A stretch of DNA of 64,000 nucleotides from Candidatus Omnitrophota bacterium (GTDB lineage: Bacteria > Omnitrophota > Gorgyraeia > Duberdicusellales > 4484-171). Below, one piece after another: positions 374 through 14,219 of this stretch. The stretch spans positions 258,747 to 322,746 of the forward strand of contig JAIPGM010000002.1 of assembly GCA_021735655.1 (NCBI GenBank). The letters are read 5' to 3'. Under the pieces are notes generated by a model, which saw only the letters and a list, made by a program, of their open reading frames with translations, ran no database searches and was not told the origin of the DNA. A program made the position numbers and the translations under genes. Numbering within the stretch: position 1 is the stretch's first letter; the number at the start of each line of letters is the position of its first letter.

Positions 374-1612
374 TTAGGGCATCTTACGAATAGCTTCGAC
401 CCGTTTCAATACCGGCGGATGACTATAATCCAAAAATACCTTTAATCGATGCGGGCTTAAATTAGAAAGATTGTTTACAGTGAGCTTTTTAAGCGCCGAG
501 ATAAAGGCCTCCGGATTTTGATAGGTCCTTACCGCATAGCGATCAGCTTCATATTCATGTTTTCGCGAAAGCAAATTACCGAATATTGAAAAAATAAAAC
601 TAATTGGTGTATAAAGGAAGCTAAAGAATATAAGCCCAGCGTAAACTGATATTTCATCCATTCTAAAAGCATTGAATAGCCCAGGATTTTTTATAAAAAA
701 TGAAAGCAGGTAAAACATCAGACCTTTAGTTAATGCTGAGAGTAAAAGACGTTTTATAATATGTTTCTTTTTATAGTGGCCAACTTCATGTGCTAAAACA
801 GAAACAATTTCTTCAGTAGTGTGTTTTTGAATTAAAGTGTCAAATAAAGCAATCCGACGAGATTTGCCTAAACCAGTAAAAAAAGCGTTAGACTTACTTG
901 ACCGACGCGACCCATCAATTTTAAAAATACCCTTTATCTTGAACTTTTGCGAATTAGCATAATCGCTAACCGCCTTTTTAAGCTCCCCATCTTCTAAGGG
1001 GGTAAATTTGTTAAAAAGCGGTAAAATTAACACCGGAGCAATAAAAATAAAAAAAGTACTTAAGAGAACCGTAGCCAACCAACACCAAAGCCAAGCTCCC
1101 TGATCGCTAAACTCGACAAAAAGACGTACAATTAAATAGAAAGCCGGACCGGCAATAATTACCAACAATATCCAGTTTTTAATTAGATCAGTAATAAAAG
1201 TTTTTACGGTAGTTTTATTGAATCCATACTTCTCTTCAATAACAAAGGTCTGATAAATAGAAAAAGGTATCTCAATAATTTGAAGTCCGAAAACAATAAT
1301 TCCGGCAAAAATTAAACCGCTAAACTCAATATTTGAGCTCAAATCTCGGGAGATTCGGTCAACTAAATTGAATCCTCCGCTTAGAATAAAAATGATAACA
1401 ACTGTCGTAAAGACGGTTTTTTGAATAAGACTAAAGTAAGTATTTTCTTTAAGGTATTTTTGCGAACGACTATAGTCCTCAGGATTATAATAACCTTCAA
1501 ATTCTGCAGGTAGACTAAAACCAACTGAGGAAATATTTAACATCTCTACGGTCACCCGCAAGACATACTCGCCGATTAAAATAGCTAAAATAATAACTAA
1601 ATAAGGATTCAT
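374..1612 (-). CDS. M48 family zinc metalloprotease, Ste24/CAAX-protease-like, polytopic membrane protein
   Basis: 412 aa with multiple hydrophobic helices. HEVGH zinc motif (LAHEVGHYKKKH) and a downstream EYEADRYA glutamate, which is the typical Ste24-like M48 architecture. Confidence 0.85.
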   Translation of the reverse strand: MNPYLVIILAILIGEYVLRVTVEMLNISSVGFSLPAEFEGYYNPEDYSRSQKYLKENTYFSLIQKTVFTTVVIIFILSGGFNLVDRISRDLSSNIEFSGLIFAGIIVFGLQIIEIPFSIYQTFVIEEKYGFNKTTVKTFITDLIKNWILLVIIAGPAFYLIVRLFVEFSDQGAWLWCWLATVLLSTFFIFIAPVLILPLFNKFTPLEDGELKKAVSDYANSQKFKIKGIFKIDGSRRSSKSNAFFTGLGKSRRIALFDTLIQKHTTEEIVSVLAHEVGHYKKKHIIKRLLLSALTKGLMFYLLSFFIKNPGLFNAFRMDEISVYAGLIFFSFLYTPISFIFSIFGNLLSRKHEYEADRYAVRTYQNPEAFISALKKLTVNNLSNLSPHRLKVFLDYSHPPVLKRVEAIRKMP

Positions 1613-1650: not shown

Positions 1651-1840
1651 AAAAAAACCGACAAGGGCTTCACGGTGTGTCTACCGGCAACTCAGCCACC
1701 ATCATAGTCTAAGGCTCATACTCGCAAAGTTGGGGAGCGTTGCGTTTTAGGAGAGCTTGCGAATCATCTCGCCCAAGAACTATCTTAGGTCTGTCAGTTT
1801 TGCGCCCCTTACTTTCGTAAGGTTTGCCCTTATCGGCACC
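1651..1840 (-). promoter_or_regulatory. c-di-GMP-I (GEMM-I)-like riboswitch/leader RNA ending in a U7 tract
   Basis: Minus-strand RNA GCCGAUAAGGGCAAACCUUACGAAAGUAAGGGGCGCAAAACUGACAGACCUAAG... matches the remembered Vc2 aptamer core. The match covers GGGC-AAA, a 6-bp stem capped by a GAAA tetraloop, the G.CGCAAA junction and the CCUAAG receptor half. The 3' end GCCCUUGUCGG+U7 (1668..1651) pairs with the 5' CCGAUAAGGGC (1836..1826). Confidence 0.55.
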
Positions 1841-1903: not shown

Positions 1904-2962
1904 TTACTTTGTCAGATGAACAGTCTGAGTAGGAAAAGCAAATTCAATCTTTTTCTTCTCAAATTCACCCTTAATGCCCAGGTTTATCTCTTGTTGAATA
2001 TCCATATATTTATTATAATCACTGCTAAGCACGTAATAGACTACCTCAAAAATAAGATTAAACTCACCATAAGAAAAGAAATGAGCTCGATCCAAAGTGG
2101 CACCCTCAACACCTTCAATTATCTCCCCAATAATCTTAGGTATTTCTTTTAACTTAGAAAGAGATGTGTCATAAGTAGTACCCAGCTGAAACATCACTCT
2201 TCGTTTCTGCATTCGCTTATAATTACGTAAGCGAGAATCCGTCAAATCAGAGTTAGAAAAAACTAGCTGTTCGCCGCCTAAACTGCGAATTCGAGTAGTT
2301 TTAATTCCAATGTTTTCTACTGTTCCCAAAAGATCGCCAACAATAACAAAATCGCCAACTTCAAAGGGACGGTCAAAAATAATTGAAAAATAACTAAATA
2401 AATCCTTTAGAACTGCTTGGGCAGCCAAAGCAATGGCTACACCACCAATACCCAACCCGGCAATAACCGTTGATATTTTAAAACCTAAGTTGTCTAAATA
2501 GAAAATAATAGCCAGGGCCCAAATAATAAACTTAGTAACCCTCAAAACACCCTCTAGACTATTCTTTAAAGTTTCACTGCGCCTAGACTTTCGCCAATAA
2601 ACATCTAAACTATAGGTAATTATACGAATCAATAAACGGACCGTAAAAAAAGTTATTAGCGCCATCACTAGAACGCCTAGGCCGCGATTAACCTGTTCAC
2701 TTAAGGTCAAGGTTTTAAGACTTAAGTAGAAGGCCGCAAGGTAAAAAATCGGAATAGCTATTTTCTCAATAATTTCAGCTAAGAAATCATCAATACTAGT
2801 AAGCGTCTTTGCAGCTAAACTTCTGAGTTTTTTTAAAATGATGAGCTCGAATATCTTTATTACAACACAAGCTAACAGGAATGCACCAATATGAACAATA
2901 TAATCCTGTAATGAGTTGCCAAGTATAATGTACTCTGAAAATTCTTGCATAGTTACCCCCAA
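1904..2962 (-). CDS. Mechanosensitive ion channel family protein (MscS-like)
   Basis: 352 aa. N-terminal TM helices followed by the MscS beta-domain signature (GDFVIVGDLLGTVENIGIKTTRIRSLGGEQLVFSNSDL). Confidence 0.85.
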   Translation of the reverse strand: MGVTMQEFSEYIILGNSLQDYIVHIGAFLLACVVIKIFELIILKKLRSLAAKTLTSIDDFLAEIIEKIAIPIFYLAAFYLSLKTLTLSEQVNRGLGVLVMALITFFTVRLLIRIITYSLDVYWRKSRRSETLKNSLEGVLRVTKFIIWALAIIFYLDNLGFKISTVIAGLGIGGVAIALAAQAVLKDLFSYFSIIFDRPFEVGDFVIVGDLLGTVENIGIKTTRIRSLGGEQLVFSNSDLTDSRLRNYKRMQKRRVMFQLGTTYDTSLSKLKEIPKIIGEIIEGVEGATLDRAHFFSYGEFNLIFEVVYYVLSSDYNKYMDIQQEINLGIKGEFEKKKIEFAFPTQTVHLTK

Positions 2963-2981: not shown

Positions 2982-4175
2982 TTAATTTTCCGAAATCGAA
3001 TACCGAACTTTAGATTTTTGTATTTCCAAAGTGCTAGCCAGTTCGGTTTCAGTTACAAACCCGAGTTCTTTTAAAATTTCTCCAAGCATAATTCCTCTTT
3101 TCCAATGAATTAAAAGAGCTTCATCGAGCTGATTTTGAGAAATTGCCTTTCGTTCAATTAATATCTGACCTAAAGGTTTATCATTGGTTGTCTTTCGATG
3201 ATAGATTTCCGGTGTTGCGTCTTTATTTGTTTTGGTGTCACGACGATCAACCATAAATTTGCTCTCAGGGATAGTTTTGAGGTAACGCTTTATTTCGGTA
3301 ACTTTTTCATTAAGCTGAATCATATTTTCGATACCAGAAGTGTACTCTCGATTGACTACGGCAATCGAAATTGTCATCAAAGGTGTATTTGTTAATTTAC
3401 GAGTTCGATCGCGATTAACCACAAAACCTTGGTTGCGATCTATTTCAGAGTAATGAAAAGGAATAATCGTATCGAAACTTTTAATAAAATTGTGGCATAT
3501 TTGTGCGTATTTATCCATGGTGCTGATAAAAACAAAATCATCTCCTCCAATATGACCGATAAAATCATCAGAATTTCCGAATTTTTTTACCGCGTCAATT
3601 AACAAGTGAGTTGTATGAAGAATTACTCCGTCACCTTTACGGTAGCCATAGACATCATTGAAAGATTTAAAATTATCAATATCTAAATAAGCAAATGAAA
3701 ATGGTTTTCCAGTTTTAAACTTTTCATTTAAGGCATCCTCAAATATTTTAGCACCAGGAAGACCAGTTAAGGAACTCGCATAAATACTGTGTTGGGCGCG
3801 TCTTGCAGCCATTTCAATTCGAATACGTAAATCAAGCGGGTCTGGTGGTTTTATCAAATAATCATCGACTCCTTGCTTTAGACTTAATAATTGAGCGCGT
3901 AATTGCCGCTTATTGATTAAAGTTATGACCGGAGTAAAAGCAGTGGCAAAATTTTCTTTTAAAAGCCGACACATGGCTAATTGTTCTTTACGGGCTGATT
4001 GAATATCAATGACTATGACATCAGGGGAAATTCTTTTTATTTTTTCGATATCTTGCGGTTGAGTAAATTCACGTAGGAAAACTTCGTATCCCCAACCGTC
4101 AAAACAAAAGCGCAGAACCTCTTTTAATTGACTATCCGAAGAGATAATTAAAATTTTATGTATAGTATCAATCAT
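2982..4175 (-). CDS. Response regulator receiver - GGDEF-type diguanylate cyclase (GGDDF variant) - C-terminal MshEN-like domain
   Basis: REC domain (ILIISSD...DVIVIDI...PVITLI...DDYLIKP). GGDEF domain (LTGLPG, YLDIDNFKSFNDVYGYRKGDGVI, IGGDDFVF). C-terminal tandem LGxxLxxxxxxxxxxLxxAL motifs (PLGQILIERKAISQNQLDEALLIH / MLGEILKELGFVTETELASTLEIQ) as in T2SSE_N/MshEN c-di-GMP-binding domains. Confidence 0.85.
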   Translation of the reverse strand: MIDTIHKILIISSDSQLKEVLRFCFDGWGYEVFLREFTQPQDIEKIKRISPDVIVIDIQSARKEQLAMCRLLKENFATAFTPVITLINKRQLRAQLLSLKQGVDDYLIKPPDPLDLRIRIEMAARRAQHSIYASSLTGLPGAKIFEDALNEKFKTGKPFSFAYLDIDNFKSFNDVYGYRKGDGVILHTTHLLIDAVKKFGNSDDFIGHIGGDDFVFISTMDKYAQICHNFIKSFDTIIPFHYSEIDRNQGFVVNRDRTRKLTNTPLMTISIAVVNREYTSGIENMIQLNEKVTEIKRYLKTIPESKFMVDRRDTKTNKDATPEIYHRKTTNDKPLGQILIERKAISQNQLDEALLIHWKRGIMLGEILKELGFVTETELASTLEIQKSKVRYSISEN

Positions 4176-4183
4176 TTAAACTA

Positions 4184-7100
4184 TTATACCACTTTCTTCT
4201 GTTCCTCAATTATTTTTTGGGCTATTTCCTTTGGTACCTGGGTGTACTTTTTAAAATGCATTGAGCAACTTGCCCGGCCACTAGATAAAGACCTAAGATT
4301 GGTTACGTAACCAAACATTTCCGAAAGTGGAGCCTCAGCCGAAATTAGCTTTTGGTTACCTTTTGAATCCATACCTAAAATTTTCCCCCGACGCGCACAA
4401 AGATAACCAACAATACCACTAGTATGCTCTTCTGGAGTAAGTACTTCCAAGCTCATGCAAGGCTCAAGAAGAACCGGACTCGCTTTTAAAAAAGCGTTTT
4501 TAAAGCAAGTTCTTGCAGCAATTTTAAACGCTAACTCTGAAGAATCAACTTCATGGTATGAACCATCAACGAGCTTTACCTTAACATCGACCACCGGATA
4601 ACCGGCATAAGAACCTTTTTTCATTGCTTCAATAATACCTTTCTCAACTGCCGGTATATAGTTTTTAGGTATTGCTCCACCTTTAATGCTATCTTTAAAT
4701 TCAAAACCAGCAGCTTCTTCATTAGGAGAAAGCTCAATCGCTACGTGGCCGTATTGGCCTCTGCCTCCGCTTTGCTTAGCATGTTTATACTCTTCGCTAG
4801 TAGACTGAAGGATTGTTTCTTTATAGGCAACTTTAGGCTGACCGGCCTGCGCTGAAACCTTAAATTCTTCCTTCAAACGTTCAACGATTATTTCAAGATG
4901 TAATTCTCCCATACCAGAAAGAATTGTTTCAGAGGTTTCCTCGTCGGTATGAGCGTTAAAAGTGGGGTCTTCTTCTGCTAGTTTAGCTAAACCCTTGGCC
5001 ATCCTATCCTGATCGGAACGACTCTCCGGTTTTATGCTGATTGAAACGACTGGCTCAGAAAATTCAATTGACTCAAGTAATATTGGATTTTGAATGTCAG
5101 AGAGTGTATCGCCGGTTAAAGTGGAACTGAGACCGACAATTGCCGCAATATCACCGGCAAACACTGCGTCAACATTTTCTCGTTGGTTAGCATGCATTCG
5201 AACAATTCTCCCGATACGCTCTTTTTTATTTTTAGTTGCATTTAAAACATAAGTTCCGGCCCTTAAGCATCCCGAATAGATTCGAGCATAGATCAATTTA
5301 CCTACATGCTGGTCAGCTTGGACCTTAAAAGCAAGCGCTGAAAAAAATTCATCATCTTGAGGCTTACGTTCCAAGCTTTTTTCTTTATCATCGGGGTCAG
5401 AACCAATAACTGGCGGAATTTCAGCCGGAGAAGGTAGATAGGCAACAACTGCATCAAGCAAGTCTTGAACACCCTTATTTTTTAATGCTGACCCGCAAAA
5501 AACCGGAACAATCTTATTTGAAACTGTAGCTTTGCGCAAAGCCTCAGTCAGATCGTCTTTGCTGATTGACTCCTCTGACTGTAAGTATTTTTCCATTAAT
5601 TTACCATCATAAGAGGCTACCCGATCAACCAAACTATGGCGGTATCTTTGAGCGATTTCTTTATAGCTTTCATGAATATCTTCCGACCTAATATCTTTGC
5701 CTAAGGATTCGTCATTATAAAGATGCATTTTCATATTAATAAGATCAATTATGCCTTTAAAGTCACCTTCCTTACCGATCGGTATCTGTAAGGCAACTGG
5801 TTTAGCCCCAATAGTATTTTCGATCTCTTCTAAAACCTTAAAAAAATCAGCCCCGACCCGATCCATTTTATTTATAAAGGCTATCTTCGGTACATGATAT
5901 TTATCCGATTGGCGCCATACGGTTTCAGTTTGAGACTCTACTCCTCCCACCGCACAAAATACAGCAACTGCCCCATCTAGGACCCTTAACGATCTTTCAA
6001 CTTCAGCGGTAAAATCAACGTGGCCGGGGGTATCAATAATAGTAATTTGGCAATCTTTCCAACTACAAGTGGTTGCAGCTGAAGTTATAGTTATACCTCT
6101 TTCCTGTTCTTGTTTCATCCAATCCATCTGAGCTGCCCCGTCATGAACTTCGCCGATTTTGTGCGACCGGCCGGTATAGAAAAGAACTCTTTCAGTAAGA
6201 GTAGTTTTCCCAGCATCAATATGGGCCATAATCCCAATATTACGGATCTTGCCCAGTTCTATTTTTCTCTCCGGCAGTGGCTCCTCTACTTTTTTTACTG
6301 CTTCAGGCTTAGGCTCGGCTTGTATTTCTGGTTCTTGAGCCGATAGCTCCGGAGTCACTTCTTCACTTGCGGTTTCAGGTTGCCCTTGGGTCAAATCTTT
6401 AGTTTCACCTTCCTGCCCTTGGATTAAAGATTCGTCTTCCTTTAGCGATTCTTTATCTGAAGGTAACTCTTCAAATTCCTTAGTTTCTGAAATAGGTTCA
6501 CTTGGCTGCGCCTGAACTAACTCATTCTCAAGATTGGAAGATTCTTTTTGAGAATCACCGTCCTCAATTAAAAGAATATCTGCTAACTCATCGTCCTTAA
6601 TAACGCCGCTTCGTTTAATCTCGCGTAATTTATTAAGAATACGAATCCGCTCCTGATCAATTTTTTCGATATCTTTACCTTTTAGCTCCAACTCCTTAGA
6701 TTTAATCTCTAACTCATTTTTTAATTCTTCACTTTGTTCTTCTAAAAGAGAGTACTCTTCTTTAGATACCCATTCGCTTTGACGTTGTTTTTCTTTCATT
6801 TGAGCAACTTCAGCAGCATGTGCGACAGTTTCTTTAGATAGCTGGTGCATTCTTTGAGTCTGATCTTTTAGCTCACTTTCCAAAGAAATAATCTTATCTT
6901 TCAATTGATTGATATTGACTTCACGAATTTTGATTACTTCTTCAGCTTGATCAAGTTCTTTTTTAAACTGCACACTCCGGGAAAACTCTTTCTCTAAATC
7001 CTTTTCCTTAGTAATCAATTTAACTCTCAAAGCCTCATAGGGACCTTTTCCTTTTTTCAAAGTAAGCTGCTGACTATTAAGCCATTTTTTATTGCGGTTA

Positions 7101-7393
7101 ATTTCCTCGCCCAATTCTTTAGCCTTGAGGCTAAGCTTTTGATGCTCATCTTGCAAGCTGAGATACTCAGCCTGAGTTTTTGTTAAGGCGACAATTTCAT
7201 TTTTTAATTTTGTTAGTTCCCTTTTTGAAGATTTAAGGTTTTCTGACAAGGCAGAAATTTTTTGTTGTTGCAAGTCAGGCTTAAGGCCAAACTTTGTACC
7301 CAGAGTACCTTTTAAAACTGAATCATCTTCGTTGTTAACTAAATACAGTACTAGGGCAATCGATACTCCAATTACAACAAAAATTAAAGTCAT
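4184..7393 (-). CDS. Elongation factor G paralog fused to an N-terminal TM anchor, coiled coil and acidic linker (1069 aa)
   Basis: Residues ~375-1069 are a complete EF-G ([31 protein letters not shown], domain [12 protein letters not shown]). Residues 1-21 are hydrophobic ([21 protein letters not shown]). Residues ~40-265 are heptad-like and K/E/L/Q-rich. Residues ~270-375 are an E/P/Q-rich linker. It is one uninterrupted ORF. Confidence 0.9.
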
Positions 7394-7430
7394 ATTAAAA
7401 TTATATCATATCTTTGCTATAAACAAAGAC

Positions 7431-7458
7431 TTGAGAGTTAAAATATGCGTGCTATAAT
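7431..7458 (+). promoter_or_regulatory. Sigma-70-type promoter placing +1 on the yqeY start codon (leaderless candidate)
   Basis: TTGAGA (7431..7436), a 16 nt spacer, then TATAAT (7453..7458). The ATG at 7465 lies 7 nt after the -10 box, with no Shine-Dalgarno sequence in between. Confidence 0.4.
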
Positions 7459-9176: not shown

Positions 9177-9896
9177 CTATTCCTGTGCCGAATGAGTTGT
9201 ATGTTTTTCAACAAAAAGTACTATTTTTTCTTGAATTTCAGGATTTATGTCATTAAATTCAAGCCCCATACCGGGAAAATCTTCCGGCTGTATCTCTTGG
9301 TCAGAAATCCAGACTATTTTAGCATCAACTTCAAGTGTACCTGGTTCAGGAATTAGGTGTATTCGAGTATGTAATAAATCACCCATTGAAAATAATTTTT
9401 GGGCAGCTACAAAAACTCCATCCCCGCTTAAATTGATAATTTTTCCGCTATAGAACTCATCTTGACTAGAAAACTTCTGTCGGTATTCAATACTGGAGTT
9501 AAACGGTATTCGTTTAAAGCGTCGACGAAACTGACTGTCTGATGACTCAATGATATTCTTTTCTTCCTTAATCTTCTTTATCGCATGATCTTCGGTAACA
9601 TGATATTCAAAGATTCGATCTAAACCTACGATTGAAAATAATTTCATTACATGGGAGGGAACATTGCATAGCTTCATTGCTCCCTGATGATTCGATACAT
9701 TTTTATAAATTACGGCAATAAGTGATATGCCTACATAATCAATTAAATTAACACCTTCAAAATTACAAATGACGTTCTTGGATTTATTACTAAGAACCCA
9801 GCCAACAGTTTCAACAAAATTAGAGGCATTGATATCAATATTCCCTTCTAGGTCCAAAATGGCCATGCCCTCTTTTTCACGAATATCTATCTTCAT
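9177..9896 (-). CDS. STAS (anti-sigma-factor antagonist) - PilZ fusion protein
   Basis: The N-terminal ~110 aa is a STAS/SpoIIAA-like fold (MAILDLEGNIDINAS...NLIDYVGISLI...KLCNVPSHVMKLFSIVGLDRIF). The C-terminal PilZ domain has both c-di-GMP motifs, RRxxxR (RRRFKR) and (D/N)xSxxG (NLSGDG). Confidence 0.85.
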   Translation of the reverse strand: MKIDIREKEGMAILDLEGNIDINASNFVETVGWVLSNKSKNVICNFEGVNLIDYVGISLIAVIYKNVSNHQGAMKLCNVPSHVMKLFSIVGLDRIFEYHVTEDHAIKKIKEEKNIIESSDSQFRRRFKRIPFNSSIEYRQKFSSQDEFYSGKIINLSGDGVFVAAQKLFSMGDLLHTRIHLIPEPGTLEVDAKIVWISDQEIQPEDFPGMGLEFNDINPEIQEKIVLFVEKHTTHSAQE

Positions 9897-11484: not shown

Positions 11485-13455
11485 CTAAAAGCTTACTTTA
11501 CAACCGGCAAAGAAGTTTCTTTCTGGAGAAGGATAAAGTCCTCGCGTGGTACCGGTAAGATTAGTTGCAGCGTACTCACTGTAAAGTTCGTTAAATAAAT
11601 TATTAACACCGGCAAAAAGCTCTAACTTTTTTCCGGTATAACTTAATTTTATATTAGTTGTGTTGTAACTTTTTAACTTAGGGCTGATATTATTAAGATC
11701 ATTAATTAAATAAACTTTATCTCGATAAAGATAATCAGCAAAAAATGAAAAGCGTTCAAAAAAATCATATTTTACCGAAGCTGTAAGCATAGCCTTAGGA
11801 ACGAAAGGAACTTCCTTTCCAGCGTAAACACCGCCACGGAATTTCGCATCGATAAAGCGATAGCCGAGAGTAAACTTTGTATTGTCAAATGGGGTAAGGG
11901 TTGTAGTGAGATTCGCACCTTGACGACGAATTTTACTATAATTTTCGTTAGCGAACGTCCCTGGGTTGTAGTATATTTCGTTATTAACATTCATTTGAAA
12001 ATAATCCAAAGATGTGGTTAAAAAGTCAGTTAAACGCATATTGGCCCCCAAACTTATAGTTTTAGAACGTTGTGGTTTTAAATTTGTATTAATTGCTGCA
12101 GCCGGCCAAGTAACTAAGTATTCATCGGTCTTACCGACCCTCAAACCTCGCGAAAAATTAAGATAAATATTACTTTCGTTATCGATTTTATAGTTAAGTC
12201 CAGTTTCATACAAGCCTTCTCGAAAATTCAATCCATCATCAGTGCTTGTAGAACCAAAATAATCAAAAGTAAACTTTTCTTTTTGCACCCTAGCCCCTAA
12301 ATGCCCAGCAAGTTTTTCATTAAAGCTAATTTCATCCTGTAAAAACCAAGCTAGGCTCTGTCGATCAATGTCAGTAGCCGCGCTTGAGGTATCAGCTGAT
12401 AAATCCGAACTATAAAATTCAAATCCGGCAATTAGCTCTTGTTGAATTCCTCTAGTATCAAAAGACAATAATAGTTGTGGCCGCGCTTGAAAATTAGTTA
12501 TATGTTTGTCAGTAGACATGCTATAAGAAAGTAAATCCTCCAACTCATTTCGGTTACGATAAAATAAATCAACTGAAGCAATCAGCTCAGGTGAAAACTC
12601 GTTTTTAATAGTTAAGCCTAAAGTATTATCCTCTCGTTGATAGTTATTTAAAGGAGTTGTTGAGTCACGACGTGAAGTTCCAGCTAACCGTTCAGCTTCG
12701 GTTATATCATCTGGCAATCCATAGATATATTCGTGATGAGTCAAGTCAGCACTTATCTCTAACTGTTCGGTAGGCCTAGAGTTTAGTTCTATTGAGCTGT
12801 ATTTTGAGCGGTAATGACTATTTTGACGATAACCACTTGTTGAATGGTACTCAGAAAATGTGCGAAACGATAAAAGGTCTTCTCCACCTGAGGCTGAAAT
12901 AGACTCTTTGGTCGAGCGGTAACTTCCGGCTTCAAAGTTAACTTCAACTGAAAGATCCTTAGCTTGAGGATCTTTTGAAATAATATTAACTATTCCTCCG
13001 GCAGCACCCTCTCCATACAGGACAACTCCGCCACCCCGGATTACTTCTATTCGTTCAACATTTTTTAAGGGCAACTCAGTCCAGTTAACTCCGCTCATAT
13101 CGATTTCATTAATTTTTCGACCATTCACTAAAACCAGCATGTTTGATGCAGCATTATCACCAAAACCCATCATATCAACAGTTGTCTTAACGTTAGTTCC
13201 GTAATAATCGCTGACGTGTAACGACGGAACATTTCTTAAGAAATCAATTACTGTGCTTGATCCGCTAGCCTTGATATGTTTCTCGGTATATACTTTGGTC
13301 GCATAAGGAGTTTCAGAAATTGTTGTTTCTTCTACTCCGGCATAAGGAGTTACTACTATTTGCTCTAAATCTATTTGTCCTTGCGCCAACAAAGGACTTA
13401 ATGATCCAAATTGAATAGTCAAAAATAATATTAAAAATACAAAACACCTTTTCAT
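11485..13455 (-). CDS. TonB-dependent outer-membrane receptor (BtuB-like, under cobalamin riboswitch control)
   Basis: Signal peptide, then a plug domain (VVTPY...; IEVIRGGGVVLYGEGAAGGIVNII), a long beta-barrel and a C-terminal aromatic residue (KVSF). Start moved to the ATG at 13455 (MKRCFVFLIL), which follows an AAAGGAGGGGG Shine-Dalgarno sequence. The tracked 5' extension overlaps a terminator hairpin. Confidence 0.85.
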   Translation of the reverse strand: MKRCFVFLILFLTIQFGSLSPLLAQGQIDLEQIVVTPYAGVEETTISETPYATKVYTEKHIKASGSSTVIDFLRNVPSLHVSDYYGTNVKTTVDMMGFGDNAASNMLVLVNGRKINEIDMSGVNWTELPLKNVERIEVIRGGGVVLYGEGAAGGIVNIISKDPQAKDLSVEVNFEAGSYRSTKESISASGGEDLLSFRTFSEYHSTSGYRQNSHYRSKYSSIELNSRPTEQLEISADLTHHEYIYGLPDDITEAERLAGTSRRDSTTPLNNYQREDNTLGLTIKNEFSPELIASVDLFYRNRNELEDLLSYSMSTDKHITNFQARPQLLLSFDTRGIQQELIAGFEFYSSDLSADTSSAATDIDRQSLAWFLQDEISFNEKLAGHLGARVQKEKFTFDYFGSTSTDDGLNFREGLYETGLNYKIDNESNIYLNFSRGLRVGKTDEYLVTWPAAAINTNLKPQRSKTISLGANMRLTDFLTTSLDYFQMNVNNEIYYNPGTFANENYSKIRRQGANLTTTLTPFDNTKFTLGYRFIDAKFRGGVYAGKEVPFVPKAMLTASVKYDFFERFSFFADYLYRDKVYLINDLNNISPKLKSYNTTNIKLSYTGKKLELFAGVNNLFNELYSEYAATNLTGTTRGLYPSPERNFFAGCKVSF

Positions 13456-13487
13456 ACTACCCCCTCCTTTAAAACTAATCTTAAAAT

Positions 13488-13516
13488 AAAAAAACCCTAT
13501 ACCTTCTGGTATAGGG
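13488..13516 (-). terminator. Intrinsic terminator/attenuator hairpin just upstream of the receptor RBS
   Basis: Minus strand CCCUAUACC-AGAA-GGUAUAGGG (a 9-bp perfect stem) followed by U7. Confidence 0.6.
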
Positions 13517-13544
13517 TGCACCCTGATTTACTTGGCCCTAAAAT

Positions 13545-13790
13545 AAAAAAATTCAGGTAATGTTTCCACGCAAAACCTAAACTTTGCTTCTTACGGCAGG
13601 TCTTCTGACTTCCCTACATCTTTTAGCTACCTTCCCACCTGCATTTTAAAACAGATAGTGGTTTAAATCGCTAAAAGGGCCCTAAAATTATCTCTAGGGG
13701 TCGGGATCACAGCACCGGGAGTGTCTCCGATTCTCACGGAGTTCCCTATTAAGCTCCTTTTGAGCACCGTAAAATTAGCTACTTTTATAC
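13545..13790 (-). promoter_or_regulatory. Cobalamin (B12) riboswitch with terminator expression platform
   Basis: The minus-strand RNA contains GGUGCUCAAAAGGAGCUUAAUAGGGAACUCCGUGAGAAUCGGAG...GCUGU and a B12-box-like ACCACUAUCUG...GCAGGUGGGAAGGUAGC. It ends in the hairpin UUUAGGU...ACCUGAA (13581..13552) followed by U7 (13551..13545). Confidence 0.8.
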
Positions 13791-14146: not shown

Positions 14147-14219
14147 TGCCCCCATCCCGACTCGAACGGGAATTTCAGCCTTAGGAGGGCCGCGCTCTAT
14201 CCTGTTGAGCTATAGGGGC
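14147..14219 (-). tRNA. tRNA-Arg (anticodon CCU)
   Basis: The 73-nt sequence GCCCCUAUAGCUCAACAGGAUAGAGCGCGGCCCUCCUAAGGCUGAAAUUCCCGUUCGAGUCGGGAUGGGGGCA folds by hand into a cloverleaf. It has a 7-bp acceptor stem, GCUC/GAGC D stem, CGGCC/GGCUG anticodon stem, loop CU-CCU-AA and T loop UUCGAGU. CCA is not encoded. Confidence 0.9.

Follow-up and report, generated by a model that had tools for sequence, protein, structure and literature searches.

Few proteins are as conserved or as much studied as elongation factor G (EF-G), which is regarded as diffusing freely in the cytoplasm. Here we analyse an EF-G gene in a 64,000-nt stretch of DNA (the window; contig JAIPGM010000002.1, positions 258,747-322,746, of assembly GCA_021735655.1, Candidatus Omnitrophota bacterium), the product of which joins a complete canonical EF-G to a predicted N-terminal transmembrane (TM) anchor, coiled-coil stalk and acidic disordered linker (Table 1). 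An earlier interpretation made from the letters alone, here called the sequence-only reading, had proposed this arrangement. Its claim of one uninterrupted open reading frame (ORF) holds, the ORF starts with ATG, and the architecture was borne out by AlphaFold2 (AF2) modelling, by hydrophobic periodicity and by matches to Pfam and TIGR00484. Judged from its recurrence in related genomes, the architecture of this long EF-G is real, and neither an assembly nor a gene-calling artefact. This suggests that part of the translation machinery of the Omnitrophota is held at the membrane.

Table 1. Features of the long EF-G gene and its surroundings. Positions are those of the window.
Feature	Residues	Position	Strand	Basis
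Long EF-G ORF	1-1069	4184..7393	-	Single unbroken 1069-aa ORF, ATG start
N-terminal TM anchor	1-23	7325..7393	-	Hydrophobicity, charge pattern, AF2; predicted N-out/C-in
Juxtamembrane charged disordered segment	24-40	7274..7324	-	AF2 pLDDT ~44; K/R-rich across orthologs
Coiled-coil stalk	41-262	6608..7273	-	AF2 helices, heptad periodicity, conserved motifs
Acidic E/K/P/A/Q-rich disordered linker (leash)	263-373	6275..6607	-	AF2 and composition
Complete canonical EF-G and stop codon	374-1069	4184..6274	-	TIGR00484, Pfam
G domain with G' insert	382-655	5429..6250	-	PF00009 GTP_EFTU, E = 7.6e-69
EF-G domain II (EF-G_D2)	684-766	5096..5344	-	PF22042 and PF03144
EF-G domain III (EFG_III)	778-851	4841..5062	-	PF14492
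EF-G domain IV (EFG_IV), including tip loops	853-972	4478..4837	-	PF03764
EF-G domain V (EFG_C)	974-1060	4214..4474	-	PF00679
Extended -10 promoter-like element TGATATAAT		7400..7408	-	Read from the sequence; putative function
REC-GGDEF gene, 8 nt downstream of long EF-G		2982..4175	-	Pfam Response_reg and GGDEF
STAS-PilZ protein gene, upstream of long EF-G		9177..9896	-	Neighbourhood annotation
c-di-GMP-I riboswitch		1683..1838	-	Rfam RF01051, 60.8 bits

The extension is conserved across the Omnitrophota

An extension of 301-394 amino acids ahead of the G1 motif is present in 106 of the 120 best database matches to the full protein, and the named sources of these extended matches are Candidatus Omnitrophica/Omnitrophota. 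A scan of GTDB with one genome per species yielded 79 loci, 55 of which have the long form. The titles of these 55 loci are almost all Omnitrophota, together with some third-party annotation (TPA) bins labelled Planctomycetia/Planctomycetales and one labelled Methanosarcinales. In nearly all of them the first ATG past the upstream in-frame stop codon begins a hydrophobic helix of about 22 residues. This ATG is situated 312-444 amino acids before the G1 motif, and it is preceded by a Shine-Dalgarno (SD)-like motif in 24 of the 55 loci. An extension first recognised in a single genome is thus kept in 55 species-representative metagenome-assembled genomes (MAGs), and a pattern that recurs in independent assemblies of 55 species is not explained by faulty assembly, by the loss of a stop codon or by an ORF called too long.

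The sequence-only reading had also stated that no start codon lies near residue 375, where an ordinary EF-G would begin, and that a GGAGAG string at this point might serve a non-canonical internal start. The first statement is essentially right, as GTG346 and ATG389 are the only in-frame ATG, GTG or TTG codons between residues 335 and 422. The string is also present (6267..6272), where it forms part of the codons for P-E-R, but an internal start does not stand as a conserved feature: 35 of the 55 orthologs have no ATG, GTG or TTG at codons -25 to -9 relative to the G1 motif, and only two have an ATG there. We therefore rejected an internal start producing an EF-G of ~695 residues as a conserved mechanism. 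Such a start would moreover be unnecessary, because a separate gene already supplies a short EF-G (see below).

Four NCBI records of long forms (MCF7907706.1, UCD16144.1, MBD3264540.1 and MBU1923995.1) are all named only 'elongation factor G'. MBU1923995.1 retains its full 1036 amino acids, and the ORFs of the three trimmed records extend upstream to an ATG with which the TM helix begins. These names, together with the trimming of the extension by model-guided start calling in public annotation, conceal the architecture in the databases. No proteomic evidence for the long EF-G was found in the supplements of PMC12583861. In one ortholog (L056, 5977..9105, MAG JAPLLS01) the long EF-G is split into ORFs of 413 and 616 amino acids by a break in the G domain after ...ATPCFW, and the gene is either frameshifted, a pseudogene or affected by a sequencing error.

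The C-terminal part is a canonical EF-G

Residues 374-1069 pass every sequence test for a canonical EF-G. The EF-G equivalog model TIGR00484 matches the protein with 1051.7 bits (cutoff 659.4), residues 376-1066 being aligned with positions 3-690 of the 691 in the profile, and the EF-G part alone scores 1053.6 bits. All five Pfam domains of EF-G (G with G', II, III, IV and V) are present and in order. The best solved relatives in a search of the PDB were the EF-Gs of Thermus thermophilus (867 bits) and Escherichia coli (~850 bits). Models for related GTPases remained below their cutoffs, namely the EF-G2-type models NF009377 (513 bits, cutoff 890) and NF058620 (506 bits, cutoff 1000), the tetracycline ribosomal protection model NF012153 (412.5 bits, cutoff 775), the lepA model (182 bits, cutoff 534) and the models for RF3 and BipA. 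The GTPase motifs G1-G5 and the domain IV loops, including SGGRGQYGH, are intact in the window protein, which confirms the sequence-only reading in this respect, and G1-G5 and both domain IV tip loops are ~100% conserved in the 55+ long forms as well as in the clade of short EF-Gs. We infer that the tethered EF-G is probably catalytically competent.

At the junction, the segment starting with P374 corresponds in the alignment to the beginning of ordinary EF-Gs, M-x-R-x-[IV]-E-L-K-K-V-R-N-I-G. P374 stands where the canonical initiator Met would be, and across the orthologs the residue replacing this Met is usually Pro. Since the junction aligns in this way, the fusion is placed exactly at the former start codon. 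The PDB search also returned deposited structures of chimeras in which ribosomal protein L9 is fused N-terminally to EF-G, such as 4wpo. We take these structures to be ribosome complexes, and a cargo on the N-terminus of EF-G need therefore not block ribosome binding.

The anchor, the stalk and the linker

Membrane topology was judged from Kyte-Doolittle hydrophobicity, charge distribution and the AF2 monomer model. The best Kyte-Doolittle 19-mer of the window protein begins at residue 1 (mean 2.79), the first 21 residues are uncharged, and AF2 predicts a helix at residues 2-23 with a predicted local distance difference test (pLDDT) score of 85-90. In 107 long forms, the uncharged N-terminal span also begins at residue 1 and has a median length of 24 amino acids, with a Kyte-Doolittle mean of 2.3-2.8. 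On average, these sequences have 0.03 Lys and Arg residues before the hydrophobic span and 5.6 in the 20 residues that follow it. A single N-terminal span of TM length, with neither a positive n-region nor features of a cleavable signal peptide, is typical of a signal anchor. By the positive-inside rule, the Lys and Arg residues after the span place the C-terminal part in the cytoplasm, so that the N-terminus is predicted to be outside and the stalk and EF-G to be cytoplasmic (N-out/C-in).

The stalk is modelled by AF2 as two long helices (residues 41-205 and 211-262), mostly with a pLDDT above 90 that drops to 72 at residues 111-120. The power of the 3.5-residue hydrophobic periodicity over residues 41-262 was 2.56 versus 0.20 +/- 0.20 in 1000 shuffles, with 0 of them as high as the protein itself, and such a sustained heptad periodicity in a long predicted helix is characteristic of a coiled coil. 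In the alignment of the extensions W104 is invariant, and K129, E130, L133, F137, K139, V141, K200, S206, W208 and L217 are at least 90% conserved. The conserved blocks of the stalk read K129-E-K-x-L-x-x-E-F-x-K/R-x-V141, more fully K129-E-K-E-L-x-x-E-F-x-K-N-V-x-L, and K200 ... S206-E-W208-V-S-K. Placing the conserved residues in the heptad register gave no clean assignment to core versus surface positions.

The linker (residues 263-373) has an AF2 pLDDT of 29-51. Residues 270-375 of the window protein contain 24% E and 9% P, and the linkers of the 107 sequences contain 25% E, 13% K and 10% P, with a mean net charge of -13. Among the orthologs the sequence of the linker is not conserved and its length varies, yet it is consistently acidic. 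Being acidic, the leash should not stick to the membrane or to ribosomal RNA (rRNA). The AF2 model of the extension, with its helix at residues 2-23, its long stalk helices and its disordered linker, thus agrees with what had been foreseen from the letters.

Geometric estimates give the stalk a length of ~33 nm if fully extended (222 residues at ~0.15 nm each; ~30 nm in round figures), and the 111 residues of the leash a contour length of ~40 nm, the end-to-end distance of which is typically far less. A Foldseek comparison of the extension model with the PDB gave 0 matches, Pfam searches with the extension and its stand-alone homologs (see below) gave only sub-threshold coiled-coil noise, and a profile search of PDB sequences with the extension returned only coiled coils of the GCN4, SMC and keratin type. 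Since none of these searches gave a specific match, the anchor was assigned to no described family.

The anchor is found outside EF-G

A profile of the extension was compared with 1.84 billion representative proteins, which gave 416 matches at E<=1e-3, including many long EF-Gs that are cut by contig ends. The matches also include a family of stand-alone proteins of ~205-250 amino acids (P0197-P0269), which combine a TM helix at the N-terminus with a coiled coil and share the W, KEKxxEKEFSxNLxLKK and WVSKxEY motifs with the EF-G extension. They are encoded by complete genes that are flanked by other genes, for example L085 5606..6235 and L088 5123..5827, and one member of the cluster is an NCBI hypothetical protein of Candidatus Omnitrophota. 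Larger proteins of 529-724 amino acids (P0205, P0211, P0262 and P0196) have a similar N-terminal anchor followed by repeated coiled-coil modules. In P0205, Pfam detects a C-terminal MshEN domain and a PilZ domain, and such anchored MshEN-PilZ proteins would be membrane-tethered receptors of cyclic di-GMP (c-di-GMP). As judged from these shared motifs and varied partners, the anchor is a reusable tether module of the Omnitrophota.

A SpoU rRNA methylase and pseudouridine synthase gene pair is located within a few kb of the stand-alone anchor genes in L085 and L088. In addition, small ORFs for a TM helix plus coiled coil occur a few kb from EF-G genes in three loci (L040 9873..10757, L046 10453..11046 and L050 6437..6958), and these have no W motifs. 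Anchored coiled-coil proteins seem to be common in the Omnitrophota.

A soluble paralog exchanges its G domain with the long form

A neighbour-joining (NJ) tree built from the EF-G parts unites the long forms in one clade and places the short forms (~694-702 amino acids) with canonical EF-Gs from bins that bear the labels Auribacterota and Spirochaetes. Only one pair, recently converted, departs from this split. The assemblies of ten genomes contain both a long and a short EF-G gene. They are found on separate contigs of one assembly in CAYVYJ01, CAZAYU01, JAUVUO01, CAZPYY01, CAZVQU01 and JAIWAR01, and in one locus, on the same strand and a few kb apart or closer, in L012, L018, L064 and L082, where L012 is the complete 1.52-Mb chromosome CP070797.1. 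For the window's MAG, the long protein is recorded as MCF7907706.1, and an Omnitrophica EF-G of 698 amino acids, MCF7908053.1, is encoded on a 159,873-bp contig. The two accessions are only 347 numbers apart, and on this proximity the window's own MAG very probably also carries a short EF-G, which is 68% identical to the EF-G part of the long form. As the tree and these co-occurrences indicate, the long form is a paralog of single origin beside a soluble EF-G, in keeping with the sequence-only reading, which had called it a paralog.

No gene for S12, S7 or EF-Tu was found in the window or within ~6 kb of the fetched long and short EF-G loci of Omnitrophota, and for the window this upholds the earlier statement that the gene is not in the rpsL-rpsG-fusA-tuf context. 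S12-S7-EF-G-EF-Tu operons have been reported for some Omnitrophota in a 2026 preprint, and our GTDB scan relied on peptide patterns (e.g. QMDWMKQE) that EF-Gs with the usual MDWMEQE motif would escape. For these two reasons, some lineages of the phylum may have a third EF-G copy.

The long and short copies differ little in their catalytic parts. TIGR00484 scores are 1052-1054 bits for long forms and 1090-1095 bits for short paralogs, and pairwise identity averages 70% among the long forms, 77% among the short forms and 68% between the two clades. Only three sites separate the clades, namely R/H at ~585, I/V at ~1005 and K/Q at ~1015, the latter two being in domain V. With just these three discriminating sites, the sequences show no sign of subfunctionalisation in the catalytic domains, and we rejected this possibility.

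Over the first 50-300 codons, the two copies are 91-100% identical at the nucleotide level in four of the ten genome pairs, versus 60-75% downstream (domains II-V). Between independent assemblies of one lineage, nucleotide identity is 97% and 92% over the first 900 nt and then 71%. The conversion pairs are L010 and L075, L008 and L038, L015 and L047, L016 and L074, and L002 and L004. It should be noted that the fully identical 900 nt in CAZAYU01 could in part represent assembly collapse, but the graded cases are not explained in this way. As these identity profiles indicate, the long and short copies exchange G-domain DNA by recurrent gene conversion, which is a clear case of concerted evolution that affects just one domain of a core factor of translation. 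Recurrent conversion implies that the G domains are functionally interchangeable, and this in turn favours the view that both copies run through an ordinary GTPase cycle at one and the same site of the ribosome.

In L012 (2310..14301) the short EF-G gene is followed in turn by genes for a SpoU rRNA methylase, a peptidoglycan-binding protein, the long EF-G, an Asn-synthase-like protein and a Diphthami_syn_2 (PF01902) protein. The presence of a gene of the diphthamide synthase family near EF-G is curious, and the arrangement was not seen in the window or in L002.

Proposed role of the long EF-G and alternative explanations

We propose, with moderate confidence, that the long EF-G is a functional single-pass inner-membrane EF-G that is tethered to the cytoplasmic face and acts near the membrane. 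The TM helix at the extreme N-terminus would insert N-out/C-in, the heptad coiled coil of ~220 residues would form a stalk, which is probably dimeric or of a higher oligomeric state and would measure ~30 nm at full extension, and the acidic disordered leash of ~110 residues would hold the complete five-domain EF-G in the cytoplasm. There, the tethered factor would carry out ribosome-stimulated GTP hydrolysis that drives translocation, and possibly also ribosome recycling dependent on the ribosome recycling factor. Its action would be confined to a shell some tens of nanometres deep under the membrane. The most economical function would be to raise the local concentration of EF-G for membrane-engaged ribosomes, for example during co-translational insertion or export. 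As to history, the simplest course of events would be that an ordinary EF-G gene was duplicated in the Omnitrophota, and that one of the copies became joined, at its start codon, to a membrane-anchored coiled-coil module that already existed.

Several observations weigh against this proposal. The starts called by NCBI fall inside or after the extension, giving 871 amino acids for MCF7907706.1, 797 for UCD16144.1 and 700 for MBD3264540.1. The extension matches no family or fold that would point to a partner. The AF2 monomer cannot distinguish an extended stalk from a folded helical bundle, and a bundle would have a shorter reach. Ultra-small cells have been reported for the Omnitrophota, and in cells a few hundred nm across the tether reaches much of the cytoplasm, so that any membrane-proximal specialisation may be weak. 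With such a reach, the specialisation may concern organising ribosomes rather than excluding them. Lastly, a tethered factor that has to cycle at every codon would be rate-limiting unless it is locally abundant.

In one alternative explanation the extension would be an artefact, caused by wrong assembly, by the loss of a stop codon or by an ORF drawn too far upstream, or would stay untranslated, with only the ~695-residue EF-G being made from an internal start. The trimmed records of the window protein and others, the GGAGAG string at the junction and the interrupted ortholog L056 would all fit this explanation. However, the frame is open over more than 300 codons in 55 species and independent assemblies with the TM helix, the heptads and the motifs conserved; the canonical Met is replaced, usually by Pro, with 35 of 55 orthologs devoid of a start near the junction; and SD-like motifs precede the upstream ATG while a separate gene exists for the short EF-G. 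We consider this explanation close to excluded. It is unlikely, though clearly less so, that the tether serves as a reservoir that stores EF-G away from ribosomes until linker cleavage or a c-di-GMP signal releases or activates it. The disordered linker of ~110 residues would be an accessible protease substrate, and a parallel is offered by EF4/LepA, which reportedly is kept in store at the E. coli membrane and set free under stress (PMC5207388). A role of c-di-GMP would be in line with the REC-GGDEF gene downstream, the STAS-PilZ gene upstream and the c-di-GMP-I riboswitch before the M48 peptidase gene in the window's clade, as well as with the fusion of the same kind of TM-coiled-coil anchor to MshEN-PilZ receptors. 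On the other hand, the linker is the least conserved part of the protein and has no conserved cleavage motif, the c-di-GMP/M48 neighbourhood is present in only 7-10 of the 55 loci, the existence of a soluble EF-G gene makes a releasable reserve seem redundant, and a conserved long coiled coil would be superfluous for simple storage.

Rather unlikely, in our opinion, is a role as docking or hibernation anchor, where the EF-G head would mainly bind ribosomes and park idle or specialised ones at the membrane instead of acting as a turnover translocase. A dimeric stalk with two ribosome-binding heads would be suited to this task, EF-G-family factors occur on idle ribosomes in other systems, and the conserved stalk motifs suggest a specific partner or assembly. 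However, the GTPase and translocation motifs are kept at ~100%, the G domain is freely exchanged with that of the housekeeping paralog, and the clades differ by no more than three specific substitutions. The kept motifs and the exchange of the G domain argue for ordinary catalytic cycling rather than locked binding. We regard it as improbable that the coiled-coil membrane module is primarily a scaffold for the envelope, for division or for membrane organisation, with EF-G as a regulatory appendage that would sense GTP or ribosomes and so link the scaffold to the state of translation. This possibility draws on the fact that the module exists alone, as complete genes for ~205-250 amino acids with the same motifs, and also carries other C-terminal domains, and for this reason the anchor probably does have a function that is independent of EF-G. 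Nevertheless, the module matches no known scaffold family, and one would hardly expect a sensor domain to remain so like a housekeeping EF-G, throughout the phylum, that the two cannot be told apart.

The proposal of a membrane-tethered, active EF-G can be taken further, but this extension is tentative and we hold it to be rather doubtful. The Omnitrophota might divide elongation spatially, with an integral membrane EF-G, its heads borne on acidic leashes by a probably dimeric coiled-coil stalk, serving or organising a sub-membrane layer of ribosomes and the soluble paralog serving the rest of the cytoplasm. The stand-alone relatives of the anchor and the MshEN-PilZ fusions might then represent a general system of the phylum by which cytoplasmic machines are tethered to the membrane. 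If true, this spatial division might sustain the co-translational export or insertion of the very long proteins of the phylum.

Comparison with known EF-Gs and membrane-tethered proteins

Residues 374-1069 match canonical EF-G (FusA, e.g. T. thermophilus 1dar/1efg and the E. coli protein) end to end, with all domains and motifs. Unlike canonical EF-G, the window protein has an additional 373-residue N-terminal TM/coiled-coil/linker extension and lacks the initiator Met at the canonical position, and unlike canonical fusA its gene is situated outside the str operon, as a second copy beside an EF-G of ~698 residues. Genomes with two EF-G genes that divide their labour are known. The EF-G1A/EF-G1B pair of Pseudomonas aeruginosa (PMC3832671) resembles the Omnitrophota pair in that both copies in one genome are of the canonical EFG I type, and two EF-G genes per genome are likewise represented by EFG1/EFG2 of spirochaetes, planctomycetes and delta-proteobacteria, by mtEF-G1/mtEF-G2, and by the EF-G2 of T. 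thermophilus and mycobacteria. However, the members of these known pairs are soluble and differ in their catalytic domains, whereas the Omnitrophota copies have catalytic parts that can hardly be told apart and are homogenised by gene conversion, and differ by the membrane tether.

Among translational GTPases of the EF-G family, EF4/LepA is also reported to be membrane-associated (PMC5207388). Its association is peripheral, with neither a TM helix nor a stalk, and it lacks EF-G domain IV and has a C-terminal domain of its own. FtsY is another translation-linked GTPase, which is held at the membrane via an acidic, poorly conserved N-terminal A domain or a TM anchor, and in this respect it resembles the long EF-G with its acidic, poorly conserved N-terminal extension. 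However, FtsY is a signal recognition particle (SRP)/SIMIBI GTPase without a coiled-coil stalk, and it acts on complexes of SRP, ribosome and nascent chain rather than at the ribosomal GTPase centre. The same design logic of a tether is found in ZipA (TM helix, charged region, P/Q linker and globular domain), RNase Y (TM helix, coiled coil and catalytic domains) and F-ATPase subunit b (TM helix and dimeric helical stalk). No sequence relation or specific fold relation of these three to the extension was found, none of the analogues, EF4 and FtsY included, is homologous to it, and the cargo of the long EF-G is a core elongation factor.

Full-text literature searches found no description of an EF-G with a membrane anchor and a coiled-coil stalk, and a survey of translational GTPases from 2015 uses none of the terms membrane, transmembrane, coiled and N-terminal extension. 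The remark in the sequence-only reading that no EF-G of this architecture has been described is consistent with these searches. The long EF-G should come as a surprise to translation specialists. A phylum-wide anchored copy that is catalytically intact by its motifs would mean that the site of elongation or recycling can be under selection in bacteria, and it would offer a natural system for asking how the diffusion of factors limits translation at membranes. The long EF-G may also relate to the ultra-small cell size and the very long exported proteins of the Omnitrophota.

Promoter region and genomic neighbourhood

The extended -10 promoter-like element TGATATAAT ends 6 nt ahead of the ATG of the long EF-G gene, and the messenger RNA may for this reason be leaderless. 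The element was not listed by a consensus promoter scan because of its poor -35 match. The arrangement is shared with the closest ortholog, L006, and is absent from most other orthologs. We therefore rejected a leaderless promoter as a feature of the family. The divergent intergenic region between the long EF-G gene and a YqeY-like gene measures 71 nt and has two promoter-like elements. The one for yqeY (7431..7458, + strand) is a near-consensus sigma-70-like promoter, TTGAGA-16-TATAAT, which agrees at 11 of 12 positions.

The gene that follows the long EF-G had been described in the sequence-only reading as encoding a REC-GGDEF-MshEN protein, separated by 8 nt and probably co-transcribed. The gap and the REC and GGDEF domains are as described, although the GGDEF match spans only positions 5-90 of the 161 in the profile. 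The MshEN domain did not hold up, as Pfam at E<=0.1 detects none in the C-terminal 200 residues, of which the last ~180 have no Pfam match. The linkage is also restricted, because only 9 of the 55 loci, all belonging to the window's clade, have a REC-GGDEF gene immediately after the long EF-G. The gene is a possible operon partner within this clade only. The REC-GGDEF and STAS-PilZ genes are syntenic with the long EF-G in only ~10 related genomes.

A gene for an M48/HtpX-like membrane peptidase (374..1612) with a c-di-GMP-I riboswitch is located ~2.5 kb downstream of the long EF-G. The riboswitch lies between this gene and an MscS-like gene (1904..2962), a position that assigns it to the leader of the peptidase gene. 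It is conserved only in the two closest orthologous loci, L006 (11506..11663) and L014 (10625..10757), where its place is the same. On the other side of the long EF-G, a cobalamin riboswitch (13578..13786, - strand, 81.7 bits) is present upstream of a gene for a TonB-dependent receptor (11485..13521), and a tRNA-Arg(CCT) gene (14147..14219, - strand) is found just past it. The syntenic locus L010 also has a cobalamin riboswitch.

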